64,000 nt of DNA. It comes from a virus. The DNA is taken from the IMG/VR virus record IMGVR_UViG_3300047510_002509; one strand, written 5' to 3'. Shown one piece after another: positions 33,560 through 64,000 of this stretch. The stretch's first letter is position 1; every line of letters starts with the position of its first letter. Below the pieces are notes generated by a model that saw nothing but the letters and a program-made list of their open reading frames with translations, ran no database searches and was not told the origin of the DNA. The position numbers were made by a program, and so were the translations under genes.

Positions 33560-34474
33560 ATGCGGCCCGACCTGTCCGAATATGGTCTTATAGAACATGA
33601 CCGCGGCATCGTCGAAGATACCTATGAGAACCGCTCCCTCTTGCGAGCGCACTCTTTCCAGTGGGTACCCGTCTATACAGAGAACGGACATCCAACTGGG
33701 TTAATCGAGGCCCGCTCCCTTGAGCAGATGAAGGAACGGCGACTGATGTCGCTGTCCAGCAAAAGGGCCCTTCTCACTGAGCCACTTCAGAATAACTCCG
33801 ACTACTTGACGGGTCTGGATCTGGTTGTAGATTCCGAGGCCTGCAAACTTGTACCTCCTTGGGTACTCGGCGCGACCCGCGCCTATATAAAAGAGCAGGA
33901 AGATGGTGGCCCGCTAACGGCTCGGCGAGCGCCGAAAGCTCTACCCGCCCGCTGCCGTGCGTATACCTCTGAGGGTATCCGCTGTATGTTGTGGTCATCT
34001 GGACGTCTGAAAGATGACGGCTTGTGTCGCCTACACCTCGGCGCGAACAAGAAGACGGGCGCGGACATTGAACGGGCTCGCAAGAAGCTAATGCAATCCG
34101 CACCTTACGCTGTGGACAAACTTGAAGAACTTATGGAGAACGCTGTTTCTGAGCCAGTCAAGCTCAAGGCGGCAACGGAGATTCTCGACCGTGCTGGTAT
34201 TCGTGCTGGTATGGAAATTGATATCGGCGTGGAGCTTAAGGATGCTCGTACCCCCGCTGAGATTATCGCTGAACGGCTTGAGCGTCTGAAAGCTGGAGCG
34301 GTTGTGATTCAAGGCGAGCTCGTTGATCGAACTTCCACACAAGATGCGGAAGTTGTTCTGGAGCTGGATCAGGATCCCCCTAAAATTTTTACCCCCCAGG
34401 CTGAAGCGGCCTCGACATCGGAACAACTTGAAACACCAGCCATATCGGCGGAGGAGCTAGAGGAGCTACAGTGA
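33560..34474 (+). CDS. Terminase small subunit-like protein with Zn finger
   Basis: RC......G.RC...CRLH.G followed by AV..L..L...A.SE.VKL.AA.EILDRAG. Confidence 0.55.
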   Translation: MRPDLSEYGLIEHDRGIVEDTYENRSLLRAHSFQWVPVYTENGHPTGLIEARSLEQMKERRLMSLSSKRALLTEPLQNNSDYLTGLDLVVDSEACKLVPPWVLGATRAYIKEQEDGGPLTARRAPKALPARCRAYTSEGIRCMLWSSGRLKDDGLCRLHLGANKKTGADIERARKKLMQSAPYAVDKLEELMENAVSEPVKLKAATEILDRAGIRAGMEIDIGVELKDARTPAEIIAERLERLKAGAVVIQGELVDRTSTQDAEVVLELDQDPPKIFTPQAEAASTSEQLETPAISAEELEELQ

Positions 34475-34712: not shown

Positions 34713-35156
34713 AGTTTGTCAAGAGGAGAACGGCATGGCTTACGCAGACGGTGACTGTACGAGAGAGCCTATGCCAAAAGACGGCGTGTCAGATATGGAT
34801 GACCTGCTATGACAACGGATTGCTTCTGGTGCGGCGAGGAAGTTAATCGGGACGGCGTGTGCAAAAGCTGCGCAGCAGCCCCATTGCCCGATGCCACCAC
34901 TTCCGAATAACGGCTCGCCCTACAACGAGGTATGCACCCACACTTCCTGTGAAAGCGGCGAGCAACGGCAAGAGATGATGCAGACCCCAGTCACCTGACG
35001 GGTCGGCATGCGCAAGAATTGAAATCATTCTTTAATACTAACGGTATGCACGTAGAACTTAGCCCGTAAGTACAACGGTATGTCGTGTAGTAATTTACAC
35101 CTAAATTACAACGGTAATACTGCAGGAAGGTTTAGCTGCAGCTTAAGATCCGATCC

Positions 35157-35582
35157 CAACTTCCAAATAACTTTGCCAAGCTAGCGGCCTGGCGTTTTCG
35201 CATGAACGCACGAAAAAAGTGCAGGAAAATGTAACCGCTCGGTGACAACAGCAGGTGTACGTACACTCAACATCCAAATAACTTTTATGCAGCCGCAGCG
35301 GATCAGAGCTGTAGGGGGTAAAAATTTCTGATCCATCGGGCCCGAAGCTGTTGAACTTCCAAATAACTTTGGGTAACGGCCCGCCGCCAGATCAGATTTT
35401 TTTACCCCTGAAGCTGCAGCAGCTCCAGATCAGATTCAACATCCAAATAACTCAGTGCACAAAAAATCCGCTGTTCAAAAATCCTTGACAAGACTTGACA
35501 AGGGGTAGTAGGCTAGGTTTCGCAACGCGGGCGCCGCGAAACTAAAAAGGGCCCGATCAGATCTAACTTCCAAATAACTTTT
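35157..35582 (+). repeat. Iteron-like direct repeats AACWTCCAAATAACT (5 copies) in non-coding DNA
   Basis: Copies near 35158, 35269, 35355, 35437, 35565; related copies at 36839, 37083, 37131, 45418, 46049. Confidence 0.75.
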
Positions 35583-35651
35583 ACCATCTCAAGCTGCAGC
35601 ACCAGGTGCACGCCACTTGCGCAGATAAAAAATTTATAATAGAGTTGCGGC

Positions 35652-35948
35652 ATGATAGAGACGCTCATACTGTGGAAGCTTTGGAACATAGAAGACAAAA
35701 TTGAAGGCGAGCCTTCTGGGGAAGATGGGTATCTCTGGATGGTGATGCTCGGTTCTTTGCTCTGGCCTGTTGGTATCTACTTTGTTGTACGTGAATACTT
35801 TGGCAGGTCTAAGTGGCTCGCTCTTTTTGCGGCGGCAGGGATTGGGTTGCTTACCATCCTTGTGCTACCCGTGTATTTACTCATCTCTTTGATTCTGGTT
35901 ATTTACGGATTTTCTTTTCTAGATAAGCTTGACAAAGATGTCAGGTAG
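35652..35948 (+). CDS. Membrane protein, leaderless
   Basis: TAGAGT-6-ATG; hydrophobic. Confidence 0.65.
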   Translation: MIETLILWKLWNIEDKIEGEPSGEDGYLWMVMLGSLLWPVGIYFVVREYFGRSKWLALFAAAGIGLLTILVLPVYLLISLILVIYGFSFLDKLDKDVR

Positions 35949-35958: not shown

Positions 35959-36003
35959 AACTAACGGAACAAGAGTTCCATACAAAACGATGAAAGGACA
36001 CCC

Positions 36004-36306
36004 ATGTCAACGATTACAAAAGTAGCGGCTTTACCCCAGTGTGATTTCTGCACAGAGAAGGCCCGCTTTGACGGCATGACTATTTACGGCCCGTGGGGCA
36101 ATATGTGTGAACCACACTTTGATACATACGGCGTCGGACTTGGACTCGGCAAGGGCCAGCGGCTCGTCGAAGAAGGAGAAGATGTTGTGATGTCGTGGGG
36201 CGAGCTCGCGGATCTCAATCACGGCAAGCAGGTAGAACTGTTTGGGTTTTGCACCTGTGAAGACGGCCCGTCTGTGTATGAGGACTGCAACGGAGGGAGG
36301 GACTAA
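36004..36306 (+). CDS. Hypothetical Zn-binding protein
   Basis: GATGAAAGGA leader; CDFC, GPWGNMC..H, GLGLGKGQ. Confidence 0.75.
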   Translation: MSTITKVAALPQCDFCTEKARFDGMTIYGPWGNMCEPHFDTYGVGLGLGKGQRLVEEGEDVVMSWGELADLNHGKQVELFGFCTCEDGPSVYEDCNGGRD

Positions 36307-36840: not shown

Positions 36841-36903
36841 CATTCAAATAACTACGGTAAGCCCGTGGAGCTCACATTGAGCCCACGGGTTTATTATTTT
36901 GTC

Positions 36904-38931: not shown

Positions 38932-39095
38932 GCCTCACGTAGGGTAAAAATATAGAACTGCCGCGGGTTTCTTCGTCGTTATCCCGTGTGCCACACCTGA
39001 GCATGTGTAAAAACTGCTCACTATCCTTTTCTGGCGAGCGCCGATGTCCCCCAAAGAGGGGACAGGAAATAAATCAAAAAGTTATTGCGTTCTAC

Positions 39096-39163: not shown

Positions 39164-39652
39164 ATGGGATACACCCACTACTATAAAAGAAGTCTTGATA
39201 GCAACGACCCAGAACTTTACGACAAGGTTCGTAAAGGTTTCACAGAGTTAGTAAAAAATGCCGAACTCAATGGCATTACAGTTGCAGATGCTTTTGGAGA
39301 AAAAGCTGGCGCATGGCAAGCAGATGGCGAGCGCATCGCTTTCAATGGTCTTGGAGAAGAGAGTTGCGAAACTTTTTCTTTCTCTCAGATTGTTCCACCT
39401 CAACCTCATTGGCGCGAAAACGAAAAAACTTTTTTCGATTTCACAAAGACTAATTATCGTCCATACGATGCTCTAGTCTGCGCGACCCTAATCCTTATCA
39501 AAGAGGTTTATGGTTCACAGGTTGAGATTTCCTCAGATGGTGGTTGGGACGATTGGGCAGATGGCTATGAACTTTACTTCTCAACCTTTAGAAACCCAAT
39601 GACACCTGAAAAACTTTTTGCCGAAGAACTTGCTTTTTTGGCAGGAAAGTAG
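39164..39652 (+). CDS. Conserved phage early protein
   Basis: ACGACGAAAGGA leader; MGYTHY, FNG, ETF, F.KT..RPYD, SSDG. Confidence 0.75.
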   Translation: MGYTHYYKRSLDSNDPELYDKVRKGFTELVKNAELNGITVADAFGEKAGAWQADGERIAFNGLGEESCETFSFSQIVPPQPHWRENEKTFFDFTKTNYRPYDALVCATLILIKEVYGSQVEISSDGGWDDWADGYELYFSTFRNPMTPEKLFAEELAFLAGK

Positions 39653-39658
39653 TAGATT
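39630..39658 (+). promoter_or_regulatory. Early promoter with GCAGGAA box
   Basis: TTGCTT-17-TAGATT. Confidence 0.7.
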
Positions 39659-40177: not shown

Positions 40178-41221
40178 ATGGAAAACACAAATCTTAGAGA
40201 GAGATACAACTCTCTCGGTGGTAGTAAAACTTTGTGGCAGATGGTTGAAGAAGTTGTTGCTCAGGCAGTATCTGAAACTTCAACAACAAATCTATCTGCA
40301 CAAGTTGTATCTGCGGGGCGTTATGTTGCTCGCGCTAGTGGCTCAGATAGAGCGCCACGAAAGTCAAAGCAAGTAATTTCCGTAGATAGCATGGAAGGTG
40401 AAGAGTCTTACGAAAGACCAAATGGCGAAATGTATTTTGGTCGCATGTGGGGCGAACACTCAGATGTGATGGCACTTCGCAAAGCGAGAGAAATGACTAT
40501 GAAGTCTTTCTCAGGTGAAGGTGGCTCTCCAATGTTTGCACTTATCTATGGCGCTCCGGGTTGCGGTAAAACTGCGATGGTTGAAGCCGCTTTTGGTGAT
40601 GATGTTGTCACACTCATTGGAACAGGTGACACCGAAGTTGCTGACATGGTTGGTGGTTATGTTCAAACTCCAAGTGGTGGTTTCGATTGGGTTGATGGTG
40701 GTTTAGTAGATGCCGCCGTCAATGGCAAAGTTTATTTCATTGACGAAATTGGTTTGATTGACCCAAAGGTTTTGTCACTTGCTTATGGTTTGATGGACGG
40801 ACGACGCGAGTTAGTTGTCACCGCAAATCCAGAGCGTGGCACTATCAAGGCTCACCCAAACTTCTATGTAGTTGCCGCGACTAACCCAAATGCTCCGGGA
40901 GTTCGTTTGTCTGAGGCGTTGCTATCTCGTTTCACTCTTCAAGTTGAAATGACAACAGATTGGGCGCTCGCAAAAAAGCTCGGAGTTCCAACTGCGATAG
41001 TTACTGCATCACAGAACCTTGCTAAGAAGCAAGTGTCTAATGAAGTTTCATGGTCTCCACAATTCCGTGAGTTGCTTGCTTTCCGAGATGTTGCGAAAAC
41101 TTTTGGCAATACTTTCGCTATCTCGAACCTACTTGCCTCTGCCCCCGAAATAGACAGACCTGTCGTTGCCGATGTGCTGACAAGGGCTTATGGGGAAGAG
41201 GTAAAGCCAGCGAAAATCTAA
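40178..41221 (+). CDS. MoxR/CbbQ/CobS-like AAA+ ATPase
   Basis: GAPGCGKT, FIDEI, AATNP, LSEALLSRF. Confidence 0.92.
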   Translation: MENTNLRERYNSLGGSKTLWQMVEEVVAQAVSETSTTNLSAQVVSAGRYVARASGSDRAPRKSKQVISVDSMEGEESYERPNGEMYFGRMWGEHSDVMALRKAREMTMKSFSGEGGSPMFALIYGAPGCGKTAMVEAAFGDDVVTLIGTGDTEVADMVGGYVQTPSGGFDWVDGGLVDAAVNGKVYFIDEIGLIDPKVLSLAYGLMDGRRELVVTANPERGTIKAHPNFYVVAATNPNAPGVRLSEALLSRFTLQVEMTTDWALAKKLGVPTAIVTASQNLAKKQVSNEVSWSPQFRELLAFRDVAKTFGNTFAISNLLASAPEIDRPVVADVLTRAYGEEVKPAKI

Positions 41222-41289
41222 CCCCTATGTCGGATTTTCGCTGAGGGGTAGGGGGCGCTTCATGGGTGTCGCGCCCCCCACTTCCCTAC

Positions 41290-41319
41290 TTGACACCCAA
41301 AGATGTTTTATTGTATTAT
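41290..41319 (+). promoter_or_regulatory. Early promoter
   Basis: TTGACA-18-TATTAT. Confidence 0.75.
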
Positions 41320-41367
41320 TTTCATGTCGAGGACAACGACATAAAGACAAATGGAAGGAACGACGAA

Positions 41368-43137: not shown

Positions 43138-43227
43138 CGCGGTAGCGAAACCCATGAACTCAATAGCCCCCGAAACAAGTGCGTCCTTCCAGCGCGTTGT
43201 CCAACTTGTGGCAGGGGCAAAAATTGG

Positions 43228-43260
43228 AAGCCCCGTCTGAAACCAAGAGGCGGGGCTTTC
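43228..43260 (+). terminator. Intrinsic terminator
   Basis: AAGCCCCG...CGGGGCTTT. Confidence 0.7.
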
Positions 43261-43294
43261 AACCTAAAAACAAAACGACGAAAGGCGGGTAAAA

Positions 43295-45470: not shown

Positions 45471-45499
45471 TTGACAAAGATGCAGGAAAGTAGTAGATT
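45471..45499 (+). promoter_or_regulatory. Early promoter with TGCAGGAA box
   Basis: TTGACA-17-TAGATT. Confidence 0.85.
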
Positions 45500-51842: not shown

Positions 51843-51908
51843 TTCAGATGTTGGAGGGCCTGGTGATCGGAATTTTTACCCTCCCAGGCCCTCTACTCCC
51901 ATAGCAAA

Positions 51909-57023: not shown

Positions 57024-58367
57024 ATGGCTGAAGAGACTTGCCCTCCAGCAACTCAAGATGTTGCTTTGAATCTAAAAAATCGCAAGAACGCGATTGACAC
57101 TGCAATGTATGGACCACTCAATCCTGCAGAGCCAAACGAAGAGTATTGGACTGCACTTGGAAGCGAGTGGGGCGTAGATGCAGAAACTGCTAAAAAGCAG
57201 ACTTGTGGCAATTGCGCTGTCTTTATTAAAACACCAGAGATGCTTTCATGCATTGAAAGCGGTTTGACCGACAACTCAGATGAGTTCGATTCAATTGATG
57301 CAGCTGGTGAACTAGGATATTGCGAAGCGTTTGATTTCAAATGTGCATCTGCACGTACATGTCGCGCTTGGGTTGCAGGTGGTCCTGTGACAGCTGCTGC
57401 TAAAAAGAAGATTGCACAAACCCCTGCCCCTAAAAAAGATCGCGTCAAAGGCTCTGACAAAAATACAAAGGGCTCAGCTGCAGGCGGTAAGAAAATCACT
57501 TTTACTCCTGCGATTGAAGCTTCTCTTCGAAAGAAGGCACAGGAGCACAACGAGAAGGCACCTAAGGGTCGCAAGACTTCCGTCTCAACGCTCAAGGCGG
57601 TCTACCGCCGTGGTGCAGGAGCCTATTCAGTATCTCATCGACCTGGGATGACTCGTAACCAGTGGGCTATGGGTCGCGTTAACGCTTTCCTTCGTCTACT
57701 TAAGTCTGGTAAGCCAAAGAACTCTGCGTACAAAGCAGATAATGACCTTCTACCAGCATCACACCCTAAGTCTTCAAAAAAGAACGCATCTTCAAAAGCA
57801 ATTACAGCTTCTGCGTTGATTCCTGAAGAGCAGGCACTAGCAGACGCTCTTGTTTCAATCACAGAGAAATATGGCAAGTTTGACCAAGACGGTGATGGAG
57901 TTTGGGCTGGCTACACACCTGCTTCTGAGAACGAAGTAAAAGATATCGGCGTTAAGTGCTCCAACTGCGTCTTCTACCAAGCAGGAGATGTATGTCGAAT
58001 TATTTCTCTTCCAATTGAAGATGATGGTAAGTGCCGTTTTGCTGTAATTCCAGAAGGCGTTGTAGATGTTTCGCAGGTTCCAGTTCGTGATGAAGAAGAC
58101 CTAGAACTTCTTCTTGCATCTGCAGAGGCAGAAGCAGACCTAACCGTGGAGTTGAAGTCTGAAGAAGAGTACGAAACTCCAGAGTACGCAATTTTTGCCA
58201 TGACAGAATATTCTGGACTTGGCTACGAAGCAGAGCCAGCTTTCCGTGCTGCTTGGCTTCGTGCAGTTCGCAACAATGAAAACCCATTTAAGCGAGCAGC
58301 AGTTCTTGCAGTAATGACATACGACAGCATGGATTCAGACCTTCTGCCGAAAAGGAAGAACAAGTAA
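57024..58367 (+). CDS. Multi-domain head-associated protein with two Cys clusters (HiPIP-like) and a basic YRRG..SHRPG..QWA..RVN.F domain
   Basis: CGNC...GYC....FKC...RTC..W; CSNCVFY....C.........G.C; follows the portal. Confidence 0.7.
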   Translation: MAEETCPPATQDVALNLKNRKNAIDTAMYGPLNPAEPNEEYWTALGSEWGVDAETAKKQTCGNCAVFIKTPEMLSCIESGLTDNSDEFDSIDAAGELGYCEAFDFKCASARTCRAWVAGGPVTAAAKKKIAQTPAPKKDRVKGSDKNTKGSAAGGKKITFTPAIEASLRKKAQEHNEKAPKGRKTSVSTLKAVYRRGAGAYSVSHRPGMTRNQWAMGRVNAFLRLLKSGKPKNSAYKADNDLLPASHPKSSKKNASSKAITASALIPEEQALADALVSITEKYGKFDQDGDGVWAGYTPASENEVKDIGVKCSNCVFYQAGDVCRIISLPIEDDGKCRFAVIPEGVVDVSQVPVRDEEDLELLLASAEAEADLTVELKSEEEYETPEYAIFAMTEYSGLGYEAEPAFRAAWLRAVRNNENPFKRAAVLAVMTYDSMDSDLLPKRKNK

Positions 58368-61300
58368 TGGCTGCCAAGAGCAAAATACAAGTACCAGTTA
58401 TTTCTTATGAAGCGCAGAACCAGCGAATTATTGATGCTGGTCTTGAGCTAGTTAAAGAAGCAAACTCTAAGTTTTCTGGTTCTCGCATTGTTACTCGTAG
58501 AGCTGCTCTTGCTGTTCTAAACCGTTCTTTGACAAAGTATGAAGGTGAGTCTTACTCTCTTCGTCGTATTCGCTCCATCAAAGAGTTAAACAACTACATC
58601 CAACTTGCTCAATACAACAAAGTTTTCTTTGGAACTGTAGATAACACAGACCTACTTCCAATCTCCCACCCACGTTCTACTCGCAAGCATGAGTTGAGCA
58701 CTGCTGACCTTATGCGCCACCGCGCTCGCTGGATTGTTGACGACCCAAAGATTCAAGACGATGAGATTCGCTCTGTTCTAGCTTCTGCTCTAACTGCACA
58801 CCCAGCTACCGCTGAGTACGAGTATTCAATCGCTCGCTTGCAGTCACTGCCACAGGGCACAGTCCCTTCTTACGCACTTCTAGCAGCTCTAGGTGATGGA
58901 AACTCATCTGCTGCACGTCGCGCTCGTGCTTTGCTACAGCGTCGTGACCGTAAGGGTCGCTTTGCGTTCATGGGCGGTTCACTTCGTGCTTTGATTCGTA
59001 AAGCAAATGGTGTTGTTCAATCTCTAACTGGTAAGACTGTTGCTGCCGATGAGAACAGCGATACTTTTGACATTGAGTTGCCAAATGGTGACCTTGTTCG
59101 TGTCCCAGCCAAGTCTGCAGAAGGTGTCAAGGCAGTTCTTAAGTCTGCTCAAAATCCAGATGGATATAGCAAGACTCCTGCAAAGGTAAAAACTGGTGAC
59201 CCAGTTGTTGATGAAAAAGATTTAATTAAGCTCGATGCTCCTGCAGGATTTAGCAAGGATGAAAGCTGGTCTCCAAGCGAAGACGACCAGAAGTACTACG
59301 GAACCAAGATTGACCTTGGAACCAAGTACACAGATGATGCATACGACGTTATTAAAGTTTCTAGCCCTAACGCATTTGCTAAAGACCAATTCGAAGCAGC
59401 ACAACAGCGCGAAGGAGAAGGTCAGAACGTTGTTACAGAAGGACTTGGAAAGAATGGCTCACTAGACCCAAATCTTCCTGTCTACTTTGTATCTCGCCGT
59501 GGAGAGAACGAGAAGTTCCCGTTTGCTGCTGTACAGCGTTGGTCTGATGTTCAGGACTACATTGCACAGGATGAACCAAAGTTTGAGAAGAACGAACTAC
59601 CAGACCCATCAAAGATGCTTGATGAAGGTCAAGAAGCTTCTGAGCCACAAGCCCCAGAGGCAACACCTGCTGAAGGTCTTGAAGGCAAGTTAGTTCCTAA
59701 ATCTTCAAAGAAGAATTTGAAGAAAGACCAGAAGAAGTATCAAAAGGCTCTTAAGGATTATGAGAAGAGTGGTGGAACATTCCCACTCGACCCGACCAAA
59801 GACCACATGCTTCTTCCAGATGGCACAGTTGTTGACGCTGAGACTGGTGAGGTTGTTCGTAATGCAGATGGAACCTCTGCAAAAATTAAGCCTGGAACTG
59901 AAGCATCTGAAGTTCCTGCTGGCGCATACAAGATGGACGATGCTCCATACACACCACAGGGAGCCGATGCAGATGTAGAGTCTGCTGACTACACAGATGA
60001 CCCTGCTGAAATCGCACAAAAGTTTGATACTCCAGAAATTACTGATGCTTTGGAAAAAGCTGTTGATGGAGACGGAACTTCTCAGCTTCCATTTGAAGCA
60101 GGAGATGAGTCTGTACCTGCTGAGGCTCTAAGAGATGCTCTTGATGAAAAGGGCGAAGACTCTAAAAGCATTCTTGCAAAAATTTACGACAAGATTAAAA
60201 ACAAGCTTTCAGGTAAGAAAGAAGAAGCTACACCTGAAGTTCCTCAAGATGTTGTAGATGAATTAGGCAAAGACTTACCAGAGTCTCCAATGCCATCTGC
60301 TGATGCAGACCCAGCAAAATTGCCTGCACTGCTTGATGGATTGTCTGATGCAGAAAAAGACGAGTATGCCAAAACTGGCGATTACGCCAAGCATCTTCCA
60401 AAAAATAAAGATGATTTTGATTTGCCAGAAGGTTACGGCTTCCTAGACGCAGAGCCTTTTAACAAAGACCTATTCACACTTCCAGAGGATGCTCCAGAAG
60501 GATTTAATTTCGACCCAATCGATATTGCAAATAACTACGACACTGAAGCACTTAAGAAGGAGTTGCGTCGCGCTGTGGAACCAGGCGGCGATGGTTATGG
60601 AATTCTTTCTCAAGAGACTGATACTGGCGAAGATTACAATGGGTACGTTCCAGCAGAAGCGATTCGCGATGCGCTTCAACTACAAGGTGAAGACACTAAT
60701 TCTCTTCTTAATGACATTTACGAAGAAGGTATCGCTGGTCAAGAAGACCTAACCCCTGTAGAAATCAGTGACGCTCTGGAAGGAGAAGAACCTGAAACAT
60801 CCGAAGGAACACCAACCCCTGAGCAAGAAGCGCCTGCCGAAGCCCCGCAACAAGTTGCGACGGATGAAGCGGGACCCGAAACCGTTGCCAATATTGGAGA
60901 ACCAAGCGGACCTGCAATCGTTGAATCAAAAGCAGGAGATCTCAAACCAGGAGATATAACTGTTGGTGACAACTTTACGATTGAAAACGTATTTTCTGAT
61001 GAAGAGTCTGAGGCACTAAAACCGGGTTCAGTTTGGGTTGAGGGTTACTATCCAGGTCACGTCACACAAAAGACTAAATTGTGGAACGCAGACACAAACA
61101 TTTCTGTTTTCCGTAACGTCGAGCCTCCTGCAAAGGGAGACTTGCCAGAGCTGTCTAAGCCAAAGCCAAAAGAGTTTGACCCTGAAGGCAAGATTTACAA
61201 GGACAAGGTCCTTGGTGTTTTTGTTCCAAAAGATGGAGAAGCTCGCAGCAAGTTCCTCGATGCTCTAGACCAATACAACGCTCAGATGGCAGAGGCTAAA

Positions 61301-64000
61301 GCTAAGTGGCAAGAGCCAGAAGGTCTAGACAAGTGGCACAGTAAAGAAGACACTGTTTCTTCTGTTCCTGTTTCTAACCCTGTTGCCATTGTTGAAGTTC
61401 CTGCAGCTGAAGTAAAAGCTGGAGACATAACTTTCAAGAAAGAGAAAGACGCTCCAAACTACGAATTTTTTGTTGTTGAAGAGAACCTCGGCATTGACCC
61501 AGAAACAGGTCAGGCAAAACTAAAGGGATTCTATCCAGGACACGTCTCTCAGGAGAAGGCTTGGAACGCAGGAACTCTTATCAAAGTTATGCGTGGAACT
61601 CAGGACTTGCCTTCACCTGGCGACAAGCCAGCTCTAGAGCGTCCAAAGTATGCAGACCCAGATTACAACTCTAAGAAGGCTGCTTTTGATAAAGCTAAAG
61701 CAGAGTCTGGTGCAGCTTTCACACCTCCAATTGACCCAGAAACAACCACAGCTGCAGTTCCTCCAAAGCCATCTCGCCCTGTTTACCCAATCTTTGGTGG
61801 CGGCGAGAAGCTCAAGTCGATTCTTGCTGAAGCTAATGGAGACCCAGCAAAGCTCAAGGAACTTCTTAATAATGAAGTTATTGTCAGCTTTGATTTTGAA
61901 ACTGCTGCAAACAAGACAAAAGTATTTAACGAGCAAAAGCCAATTCAAGTTGCAGTTACAAAGACTAAGAATGGCGAGCTTGTAGAAGAGCCTCTAGTTC
62001 TTTGGATGAATCCTGAAGTACCTCTAGGCGATTTCTACAAGAAGGCTGACTCAGAAGGTATTCTCAAGGACACTGAAGGAAACCCAATCTCTGATGAGTG
62101 GCTCGCTAAGCAGCAATCTATTAGTGAAGCTTTTGCCAAGATTAAGGAATACCTTGGTGACGAGCCTGTAATTCTCATGGGCCATAACATCAGTGACTTT
62201 GATATCCCAATTCTTCAGCGCCACATGGAAGAAATCGGTGAGACTGTAAATATTGGTGGAACTATTGACACACTTCCACTTGCAAAGAAGTTAAAGTTCC
62301 TTGGAGATGGAAACAAGCTTGCTGAAGTTTACGCAAAGTATTTCCCTGAGAAGGGAGACCTCAACTGGCACGACGCTGCAACTGATGTTTCAGTTCTTCC
62401 AGACATTCTCAACGCAATGCTTGATGAAACTGCGTTAACTAAGAATCCTCTAGTTTTAGAAGATTTCGACATTGATGCAGCAAAGGCTAAGTACGATGCA
62501 GCTGTAGCAGACTACCTTGCTAGTAAGGCTAAGAAGTCTAAGGTTGAAACAGACCAGATTATGGCTGAGACTGTTGCTAAGGGCGGCGAAGGGGAGACTG
62601 TTGACTCTCTTATCGAGAAGGTCCCAGCTGAGCTTCCAACAAAAGATGACCTAACTTCTGCAACTATCTCTGAAGTCGTTACAACAGAGCCAGACATCGA
62701 GTCTGTCCTTGGTGGATTTGTTTCCAACAACTATGTAAATGACCCAGAAAACGTTACCTACCTAGGTGCAGTTCCTGTTGAAGAGTGGAAAGCAGGAGAC
62801 TTTATTGCTGCACCAAACGGCGGATACTGGGAAGTCCTCTCAATTGAGCCAGACCCAGAAAACGATAAAAAAGTTTTTGTTAATCGACGTCTGCTTGCAA
62901 ACGGTAACGTTTACAGCGCCGAGAACGGAAAAATTAACAGCTGGGTTAAGTATGCGAAGTACGGTTTGTGGAGACGTAACTCTGCTACTACTGAAGTAGA
63001 ACCAGAGCCAGAGCTAGAACAACCACAACTTGAAACCGATGAGGCCCCAAAGAAGGAGGAGTCCGCTGGTACTTGGGAGGGTTACAAGATTTCTCAAGGC
63101 ACCGACGGTGTTTACTATGCCGAAAACATTAAGTCTGAGGATGTACAGAAACTAAAGAGTGGTGAGCTAACACCTCCACAAACTCCATTCTTTGCACCAC
63201 TTGGCGGCGGAAATGATCAAGAGACTGGAGAAGGCTACTTCTTCACCACAGATGGCAAGCGCTTCTGGGGTAAGTATGGTGCCGCTGGTGCTTTGGTACG
63301 TCGCAAGAATGCAGATGGAGAGTACGAGTACTTCTTAGCAAAGCGTTCTTCAAGCCTATCCCAAGGTGGTGGCAAGTGGGGCATCCCAGGTGGTGCTCAC
63401 AAAGACCAACTTATGGCGAAGACTCCACAAGCAACTTCCAAAGAAGAGTTTATGGAAGAAGTTGGTGGTGACCTCACTAACCTCACACCTATCTACACCG
63501 ACATTAACAAGGTTGGGGCAGAGTGGGGCTACGAGACAGATGTTTATGAAGTAGGACCAAACCAATTCAAAGACCTTTCCAGCAAGGATGGAGAGAACAC
63601 TGCAGTTGGTTGGTTCACCGCTGACCAAATTACCAAGATGGCAGATGAAGGAAAACTTCACTCAGACTTTGCTGACTCATTCCCAGGAATTATTGACTCT
63701 GTAAATCTTGATGCTCCTACCTCTGGTAAGCCAACTACCACTGAAACCGTATTTGCTGAAGATGTTTCAACAACATTCGACACCAGCAAGTGGGTCAAGT
63801 CAGGTGGACAAGGTGGTTCTAACCAAGGTGCTTTCTACACTGACCCACAAACTGGTCAGCAGTACTACGTAAAGAAGCCAAAGTCTGACAAGCACGCTGC
63901 GAATGAAGTTCTTGGCGGTGCATTATACGAAGCTGCAGGTGTTAAGTTCGGTCGTGCTTATCTAGGTGTAGACAAGAGTGGAAAAACTGTTTTAGTTTCT
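58367..64000 (+). CDS. Giant polyvalent protein (>1878 aa, runs off window): DEDDh exonuclease, Nudix, kinase-like domain
   Basis: TAATG-coupled start; same frame at each point translated and at the window end; FDFET/GHNISDFD/HDAATD; FWGKYGAAG...WGIPGG...EEVG; GQGGSN...YYVK...NEV. Confidence 0.85.
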   Translation, partial: MAAKSKIQVPVISYEAQNQRIIDAGLELVKEANSKFSGSRIVTRRAALAVLNRSLTKYEGESYSLRRIRSIKELNNYIQLAQYNKVFFGTVDNTDLLPISHPRSTRKHELSTADLMRHRARWIVDDPKIQDDEIRSVLASALTAHPATAEYEYSIARLQSLPQGTVPSYALLAALGDGNSSAARRARALLQRRDRKGRFAFMGGSLRALIRKANGVVQSLTGKTVAADENSDTFDIELPNGDLVRVPAKSAEGVKAVLKSAQNPDGYSKTPAKVKTGDPVVDEKDLIKLDAPAGFSKDESWSPSEDDQKYYGTKIDLGTKYTDDAYDVIKVSSPNAFAKDQFEAAQQREGEGQNVVTEGLGKNGSLDPNLPVYFVSRRGENEKFPFAAVQRWSDVQDYIAQDEPKFEKNELPDPSKMLDEGQEASEPQAPEATPAEGLEGKLVPKSSKKNLKKDQKKYQKALKDYEKSGGTFPLDPTKDHMLLPDGTVVDAETGEVVRNADGTSAKIKPGTEASEVPAGAYKMDDAPYTPQGADADVESADYTDDPAEIAQKFDTPEITDALEKAVDGDGTSQLPFEAGDESVPAEALRDALDEKGEDSKSILAKIYDKIKNKLSGKKEEATPEVPQDVVDELGKDLPESPMPSADADPAKLPALLDGLSDAEKDEYAKTGDYAKHLPKNKDDFDLPEGYGFLDAEPFNKDLFTLPEDAPEGFNFDPIDIANNYDTEALKKELRRAVEPGGDGYGILSQETDTGEDYNGYVPAEAIRDALQLQGEDTNSLLNDIYEEGIAGQEDLTPVEISDALEGEEPETSEGTPTPEQEAPAEAPQQVATDEAGPETVANIGEPSGPAIVESKAGDLKPGDITVGDNFTIENVFSDEESEALKPGSVWVEGYYPGHVTQKTKLWNADTNISVFRNVEPPAKGDLPELSKPKPKEFDPEGKIYKDKVLGVFVPKDGEARSKFLDALDQYNAQMAEAKAKWQEPEGLDKWHSKEDTVSSVPVSNPVAIVEVPAAEVKAGDITFKKEKDAPNYEFFVVEENLGIDPETGQAKLKGFYPGHVSQEKAWNAGTLIKVMRGTQDLPSPGDKPALERPKYADPDYNSKKAAFDKAKAESGAAFTPPIDPETTTAAVPPKPSRPVYPIFGGGEKLKSILAEANGDPAKLKELLNNEVIVSFDFETAANKTKVFNEQKPIQVAVTKTKNGELVEEPLVLWMNPEVPLGDFYKKADSEGILKDTEGNPISDEWLAKQQSISEAFAKIKEYLGDEPVILMGHNISDFDIPILQRHMEEIGETVNIGGTIDTLPLAKKLKFLGDGNKLAEVYAKYFPEKGDLNWHDAATDVSVLPDILNAMLDETALTKNPLVLEDFDIDAAKAKYDAAVADYLASKAKKSKVETDQIMAETVAKGGEGETVDSLIEKVPAELPTKDDLTSATISEVVTTEPDIESVLGGFVSNNYVNDPENVTYLGAVPVEEWKAGDFIAAPNGGYWEVLSIEPDPENDKKVFVNRRLLANGNVYSAENGKINSWVKYAKYGLWRRNSATTEVEPEPELEQPQLETDEAPKKEESAGTWEGYKISQGTDGVYYAENIKSEDVQKLKSGELTPPQTPFFAPLGGGNDQETGEGYFFTTDGKRFWGKYGAAGALVRRKNADGEYEYFLAKRSSSLSQGGGKWGIPGGAHKDQLMAKTPQATSKEEFMEEVGGDLTNLTPIYTDINKVGAEWGYETDVYEVGPNQFKDLSSKDGENTAVGWFTADQITKMADEGKLHSDFADSFPGIIDSVNLDAPTSGKPTTTETVFAEDVSTTFDTSKWVKSGGQGGSNQGAFYTDPQTGQQYYVKKPKSDKHAANEVLGGALYEAAGVKFGRAYLGVDKSGKTVLVS

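Follow-up and report, generated by a model that had tools for sequence, protein, structure and literature searches.

Genomic context of the U–MoxR–VWA module

The stretch of DNA analysed here (64 kb, further referred to as the window) is a part of a 136-kb phage genome. The region from 33 to 54 kb is an array of small genes behind strong σ70-type promoters, with an extended leader in common; the genes are provisionally called early because of these promoters and the shared leader. Within the array lies a module consisting of gene U, a gene for a MoxR-type ATPase, and a gene for a protein with a VWA domain that has its own promoter (Table 1). The nearest relatives of the MoxR protein belong to Actinomycetia phage DSL-LC01 (69%), a metagenome-assembled phage with no isolate, and to Microbacterium phage Pumpernickel (55%), which points to an actinobacterium as the probable host. 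Judging by the sequences, the carriers of the features described below probably form a family of freshwater actinobacterial phages.

The VWA protein is the likely partner of MoxR; phage MoxR–VWA pairs have been proposed to be assembly chaperones (PMC7824862). Protein U had no match in Pfam or PHROG. Its predicted model is confident (pLDDT 88), with no fold match above Z 4.9, which does not by itself make the fold new, and its likeness to WGR-like folds is weak and non-significant (Z 4.2–4.8). Residues E16, Q25, P30, R47, W58, D119, P129 and R135 of U are invariant across the family. The probable promoter of the U–MoxR unit and the promoter at 45471–45499 have 24 identical nt in common (repeat family D13); the former is missing from the list of the consensus promoter scan. 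A tRNA search of the window gave no hits. The left edge of the early region holds a 304-aa ORF (33560–34474) with a weak match to the terminase small subunit (PHROG 2538, E 1e-3), and at 58367–64000 lies the start of a 3137-aa reading frame that passes the window end.

Table 1. Coordinates of the module and of the hairpins with antisense loops in the window
Feature	Position	Strand	Basis and remarks
RNA of two hairpins, one with a 13-nt invariant loop that is antisense to ACGACGAA, the motif shared by early leaders	38962..39020 (region 38955-39025)	+	18 loci
Probable promoter of the U–MoxR unit	39630..39658	+	degenerate −35, 17-nt spacer, −10; putative activity
U leader target (SD end and spacer), partner of the hairpin-2 loop	39686..39693	+	covariation z 13.2; sister pairs 25:5
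Gene U, 152 aa	39694..40152	+	conserved upstream of MoxR family-wide
MoxR RBS target (SD end and spacer), partner of the hairpin-1 loop	40165..40173	+	covariation; sister pairs 30:2
MoxR-type AAA+ ATPase, 347 aa	40178..41221	+	Pfam AAA_5, E 4e-18; PHROG 16448 and 249
Hairpin 1	41208..41243	+	stem 41208-41218/41233-41243, 11 bp
Hairpin 2	41251..41278	+	G+C-rich stem 41251-41258/41271-41278, no U-tract
VWA gene promoter, σ70-type	41290..41319	+	11/12 consensus
Local sense copy of the loop-2 target, over the VWA −35 box	41292..41299	+	candidate H-type pseudoknot decoy on read-through RNA
VWA leader with a small 5' hairpin; loop 41331-41338 and SD 41352-41359 are separate targets	41324..41359	+	SD z 12.9; 5' leader z 6.6
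VWA-domain protein, 589 aa	41368..43137	+	Pfam VWA, E 8e-4, under the curated cut-off; annotated in relatives
VWA 3' hairpin	43166..43219	+	covariation; hold-out z 10.1; sister pairs 21:2
Terminator-like hairpin after the VWA element	43224..43262	+	fold; putative termination
Hairpin with a loop antisense to the oriented multi-copy motif GGTAAAAA	51854..51893	+	conserved in at least 12 relatives

Hairpins with antisense loops

Two hairpins follow the MoxR reading frame. The 5' arm of hairpin 1 is formed by the final MoxR codons, and the stop codon lies inside the loop. The loop element at 41223–41231 is complementary to the MoxR target in all positions (9/9), with a duplex energy of −16.8 kcal/mol, and each of the two 9-mers occurs once per strand of the window. 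The loop of hairpin 2 (41259–41270) matches the U leader in 8 of 8 positions (element 41263–41270, −13.8 kcal/mol). The first-pass annotation, which had reported both hairpins and their complementarity to the regions preceding the two start codons, was exact in these respects. It had also reported a match of loop 2 to the start of the gene at 36004; this match is present in the window (10/10 to 35997–36006, −16.8 kcal/mol), but it is kept among the nearest relatives only, and the 36004 leader was rejected as a conserved target.

The VWA gene has a similar arrangement. The apical loop of its 3' hairpin (43184–43191) is antisense to the VWA SD and the bulge (43195–43202) to the loop of the small leader hairpin, the two contacts being in nested order. 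The second contact is frequent among relatives, and the matches to the VWA leader reach 15 nt. Thus the recurrence of the design at 43181, previously claimed, is borne out: the hairpin is complementary to the leader of its own gene. The terminator-like hairpin that follows it is not listed by the terminator scan.

Both MoxR hairpins had been taken for transcript 3' ends, which is unsupported: in the terminator scan neither is a canonical terminator, and hairpin 2 was rejected as a canonical intrinsic terminator since its G+C stem is not followed by a U-tract (present in 8% of relatives). Actinobacterial terminators can be U-tract-free. By its sequence, hairpin 2 may be one of these, or it may act as an obstacle to 3' decay of a read-through RNA. 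As to a single transcript, the promoter consensus and the unit specificity of the pairings agree; given hairpin 2 without a U-tract, the boundaries of the U–MoxR transcript unit are putative.

The target of loop 2 occurs in five plus-strand copies in the window, one of them 13 nt behind the hairpin (Table 1). Of 83 loci, 25 have such a sense copy, and the match to U is kept in 22 of these as well; the copy covaries with loop 2 (z 8.0). It is located 8–33 nt past the stem, mostly within or adjoining the −35 box of the VWA promoter. Since the gap between loop 2 and the copy varies (19–47 nt in well-matched cases) and the pairing is at the 3' edge of the loop, an H-type pseudoknot fits the arrangement better than a fixed palindrome in DNA would. 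Alternatively, the copy could come from duplicated leader or promoter cassettes. A further 9-nt exact complement of the hairpin-2 loop, right after the VWA stop codon (43150–43158), is absent in L001 and is probably due to chance.

Covariation of loops and leaders

In the window, 31 intergenic loops were compared with 34 start regions using shuffled controls. The p values, uncorrected for 31 tests, were 0.01 for loop 1, <0.004 for loop 2, <0.004 for 51854, 0.05 for 43181 and 0.11 for 38962, so that loops 1, 2 and 51854 stand out and the other two are borderline. Far stronger evidence is provided by covariation in relatives. Each of the three pairings covaries (z 13–14) across a set of 85 distinct related phages. 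Permutation z-scores for the three genes were 14, 11 and 10, decreasing to about 7 after de-replication at 75% identity, with cross-unit controls of 1–2.

For MoxR, the 25 nt from the stop codon contain a match of at least 7 nt to the own RBS in 56% of cases, compared with 7% for mismatched pairs (52 distinct loci). The 42 matches contain 37 distinct target sequences, and 39 of the 42 targets overlap the SD. At L010, L012, L015, L017, L041 and L050 the two partners are wholly different in sequence from those elsewhere and yet matched, and a one-base difference between L042 and L043 is compensated. Similarly, changes in the U leader are matched by the loop of hairpin 2 in L006, L007, L023, L048 and L058, even where the target has left the spacer for a position before the SD. 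In all three tests of natural covariation the changes are compensatory, the pairing rather than the sequence being kept. The hairpin-1 stem changes together with the final MoxR codons (own versus other z −4.6).

The result was replicated on a hold-out set of 49 new loci with windows fixed beforehand: z-scores for the three pairings were 8.1, 9.4 and 10.1, against 1.6 and 3.4 between units. The latter value belongs to the U leader and the VWA trailer and therefore indicates some cross-talk or shared tags. Relatedness was controlled for by taking disjoint pairs of neighbours from a tree of 123 tips and setting own against swapped partners. Own partners prevailed over swapped ones 30:2 for MoxR, 25:5 for U and 21:2 for VWA, the cross-unit controls being 16:8, 9:6 and 8:13. 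An earlier, smaller sister test (25 pairs) had the same direction, weak for U (p 0.06) and VWA (p 0.09). The own-versus-mismatched, hold-out and sister tests agree that the spacers are gene-specific beyond generic anti-SD similarity, as the first-pass annotation had argued; its statement that there is one hairpin per gene of the unit is true in this clade.

The antisense elements are locally unpaired (0.75 versus 0.38; 88 of 93 cases). No other leader of the locus contains the full target in 9/16, 10/20 and 19/31 cases, and a long exact match is present in just 50–60% of relatives. A comparison of G-U with A-C mismatches, which would mark the RNA strand, gave 5/35, 10/110 and 16/223. The predicted duplexes are short (−13 to −17 kcal/mol, loop penalties not yet counted). 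In a nested fold of the whole U–MoxR transcript their pair probabilities are about 0, which is uninformative because loop–leader pairs are pseudoknots that such a model cannot form; the leaders themselves are predicted to be largely open. Covariation, hold-out replication, the phylogenetic control and the display of the elements in loops make selection for base pairing between loops and leaders well supported at the sequence level.

Range across phages and genes

The feature is also present in cultured phages. In Pumpernickel the hairpin after the ATPase gene matches the U leader in 11 of 11 positions; the matches in Cece and A3Wally are 8 and 7 nt, and in both the loop fits the VWA leader equally well. 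In Zooman and Big4 such a U leader and the hairpin are both absent, a concordant loss; gene U overlaps the gene before it in these phages. In DSL-LC01 the VWA match is 13/13 at position −33. No such element was seen in Gordonia phage Forza. At L332 the MoxR and VWA genes are coupled without hairpins, and the loop after VWA matches the MoxR leader (a single case).

The design had been proposed to be general for early genes. Among 349 other genes with downstream hairpins (crude gene calls), matches of at least 8 nt were found to 3.7% of own and 4.5% of other leaders, that is, with no excess beyond the module, and a genome-wide antisense-loop design was rejected. Cellular homologues (34 loci, mostly Micromonospora) had no pairing signal. 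Therefore the design is tied to the U–MoxR–VWA module.

Two side observations concern single relatives or small groups of them. In L033, L037 and L054 a sequence that looks tRNA-like by eye lies between the anti-leader hairpin and the VWA promoter. Past the MoxR stop codon of L486, a loop seems to join an anti-RBS part with the complement of the GGTAAAA tag.

Proposed mechanism and alternatives

From the sequence data, we propose, with a probability of about 0.55, that the elements are cis-acting translational locks on the U–MoxR–VWA mRNAs, by which each message throttles its own translation. The antisense element of each cistron would be kept single-stranded in the loop of a hairpin situated after the reading frame and would pair, over 8–15 bp and across 1–1.8 kb, with the SD and spacer of its own cistron in the same RNA molecule. 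The lock would be transcribed last, and ribosomes could thus load freely on the nascent message, with loading reduced once the 3' hairpins exist. A burst of nascent translation followed by throttling in cis is suggested by the coverage of the SD (39/42), the leaders predicted to be open, and the lock being made only after 1–1.8 kb. Assuming that the pairing represses, protein output per transcript from the strong early promoters would be capped. It is the RNA-level cis pairing, the repression and the timing that we infer here. Two modulators may be envisaged: the terminating ribosome might strip the element of hairpin 1, which is roughly 3–16 nt from the stop codon, off the RBS, and on read-through RNA the sense copy might form a pseudoknot with loop 2 and so keep it hidden until 3' trimming.

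The same cis pairing could instead be positive, the closed loop shielding the leader from RNases or returning terminating ribosomes to the start of the same gene. In favour of such a role, the distance between the first base of the stop codon and the start of the hairpin-1 element is 1–17 nt across relatives (median 6). Many of the targets of U and VWA, including the one in DSL-LC01, are found before the SD and close to the 5' end of the RNA, and 5'/3' pairing in hbs modulates RNase Y cleavage (PMC5737220). However, most MoxR targets cover the SD, where the paired state should block 30S binding, and the U and VWA elements are 25–60 nt past the stop codon, beyond the ribosome footprint; a stabilizing or recycling role is thus unlikely, if a serious alternative. 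The first-pass annotation had left open a cis closed loop or processed fragments acting in trans. Cis action is favoured for the three gene-specific pairs since cross-unit matches are mostly near background. We consider it quite unlikely that stable 3' fragments act as small antisense RNAs switching off several early genes: the match to the 36004 leader is limited to the nearest relatives and the targets are mostly unique or nearly so within the locus, even though loop 2 fits that leader better than the U leader and as many as 16 leaders share the target in some relatives. Action in trans suits the elements at 38962 and 51854 better, as their loops are invariant and mirror shared tags.

If the words functioned in DNA, be it as binding sites for a protein or as the inverted repeats at the flanks of a mobile module, their copies in the loops would be reversed sites. 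This might explain why the loop-2 word occurs also in the spacer of the VWA promoter and covaries there; the region is full of oriented motifs, and the weak, non-significant WGR-like character of protein U would fit as well. Yet the word pairs are three, independent and fast-changing, with 37 different MoxR words; the gap from the loop copy to the downstream copy is variable, the words are placed selectively in RNA loops, and the module has no transposase. We therefore regard a DNA-level origin as very improbable. Terminal inverted repeats of an insertion sequence or a MITE were rejected, a fixed repeat sequence being absent (37 different targets in 42 loci). The leaders of the family are alike, so that even mismatched pairs reach 4.6–6.2 nt, and C/U-rich loops could face purine-rich leaders by chance or by generic anti-SD composition; but the permutation, hold-out and sister-pair tests control for composition, the comparison of own and swapped partners contradicts this explanation, and other genes and cellular homologues show no excess, leaving it practically no weight.

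Comparison with known systems

The claim that no such phage system had been described holds in part. We found no published description of such pairing in a dsDNA phage in the open-access literature, but the icaR, hbs, hok and aapA mRNAs use pairing between their own 5' and 3' regions. Judging by sequence features, the locks would work like the 5'–3' interactions of icaR, hok and aapA.

In icaR of S. aureus a short motif located past the ORF base-pairs with the SD of its own mRNA and blocks formation of the initiation complex, the choice between cis and trans being left open (Ruiz de los Mozos 2013, PMC3868564). The likeness is that a downstream element complements the gene's own SD region. However, icaR is a single gene on a bacterial chromosome; its 3'UTR is long, its anti-SD is a generic UCCCC, and RNase III cuts the duplex, whereas here a dsDNA phage has one loop per cistron, gene-specific spacer pairing in dozens of covarying versions, an element adjoining the stop codon, and a local decoy copy. 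Loop duplexes of 8–15 bp look short for an RNase III substrate.

For aapA, repression by pairing of the SD from the 3' end has been tested (PMC6733600). As in hok and aapA, the full-length message would be silenced by a downstream anti-SD; in those systems the state is altered by 3' processing. Their mRNAs are silent during transcription, whereas the phage leaders are predicted to be open, and their pairing spans a few hundred nt instead of 1–1.8 kb. The phage unit was rejected as a type I toxin–antitoxin mRNA: it has no ORF for a small hydrophobic toxin, the ORFs being of 152, 347 (AAA_5) and 589 aa (VWA). Neither the U nor the MoxR leader is covered by a minus-strand promoter in the list of the general, untargeted promoter scan, and no antitoxin RNA emerged.

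In B. subtilis hbs a long-range 14-bp pairing joins the ends of one mRNA (Braun 2017, PMC5737220). It differs in that RNase Y cleavage is modulated and the SD is not covered, and it concerns a single cellular gene. In phage T7, as reportedly described by Saito and Richardson in 1981, the RNase III-processed 3' tail of the early gene 1.1–1.2 mRNA pairs with the upstream RBS; that case is said to differ in needing the RNase III cut at R1.3, in its short distance and in being a single site. For the MS2 maturation gene it is known that nascent RNA can be translated for a limited time before the inhibitory pairing forms (PMC4615214). MS2, however, is an RNA phage, and its inhibitor is located upstream, within the 5'UTR. 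The SAS/ESAS of mycobacteriophages and the PeSL cassettes of T4-type phages place a shared extended leader motif and promoter cassettes before small early genes. We know of no antisense loop for either, and they resemble the shared tags of the phage, not its gene-specific pairs.

The bacterial cases of 5'–3' mRNA pairing known so far stand alone, each found for a single gene. The phage pairing is a modular one: its sequence has been devised anew dozens of times, with the partners still matched, which is strong comparative evidence for kilobase mRNA loops in a dsDNA phage. It makes testable whether closing a bacterial mRNA on its own RBS represses, stabilizes or recycles, and whether it does so in cis; the cultured Microbacterium phages Pumpernickel, Cece and A3Wally carry the feature, and Zooman and Big4 are natural loss variants. 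It also suggests that the dosage of the phage MoxR–VWA chaperone module is under unusual selection.

One-to-many elements and other words of the early region

The design had also been reported to recur at 38962 and 51854. Hairpins with antisense loops are indeed located there, but the loops mirror shared multi-copy motifs rather than the RBS of their own genes. In the 38962 element the loop is invariant and the stems are variable across the 18 loci, the second hairpin has a conserved internal loop, and ACGACGAA is found on many early genes. The first hairpin occurs at other positions in L057 and DSL-LC01. An Rfam search that included this element gave weak terminator-like matches and no family, and a scan of the collection with its 14-mer gave mostly chance matches, the hairpin context being confined to this phage group. 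By its sequence, the element is the best candidate for a trans-acting regulator of early genes.

The motif mirrored at 51854, GGTAAAAA, has about 25 plus-strand copies and three reversed ones in the region 33471–54818, in both coding and non-coding sequence, every ~500–900 nt and mostly off start codons. The array is a candidate protein-binding array or RNA tag. Counterparts of the motif are GATAAAA in L191 and AGTAAAA in L019–L021 and L026. The 51854-type loop and the word switch jointly in L190/L191; in the AGTAAAA clade this position has a terminator only, and a weaker candidate hairpin lies just upstream. Both elements are one-to-many and may be read at the RNA or at the DNA level.

As a tentative and rather unlikely extension of the cis-lock model, the two kinds of elements could form a multi-address RNA layer. 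Each cistron would have a private loop–RBS lock, one of them ribosome-released and one pseudoknot-masked until 3' trimming, and the one-to-many loops at 38962 and 51854 would read tags on most early mRNAs, coding sequence included, so that early protein synthesis would be timed without a protein repressor.

Several other words were observed in the early region. CAAATAACT has 12 plus-strand copies and none on the minus strand; they are clustered in the gene-free segment at 35.1–35.6 kb (35122–35612) and found also at 36845, 37137, 45417 and 46049. The cluster may possibly represent origin iterons or an operator. Clade-specific over-represented words of the early region occur in L017, L015/L061, L044/L055, L022, and L035/L046/L059/L063; some are present on both strands (operator-like) and some are oriented, and in L022 a reversed copy of the clade word lies within a hairpin loop. 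The spacers of the early promoters at 35929, 37208, 39096, 39641, 44264, 45471, 46141 and 48488 contain mostly GCAGGAA or TCAGGAA, with a variant at 35929. In several early promoters GACACGCC is located ~15–20 nt upstream of the −35 box, and these motifs are possible regulator sites.
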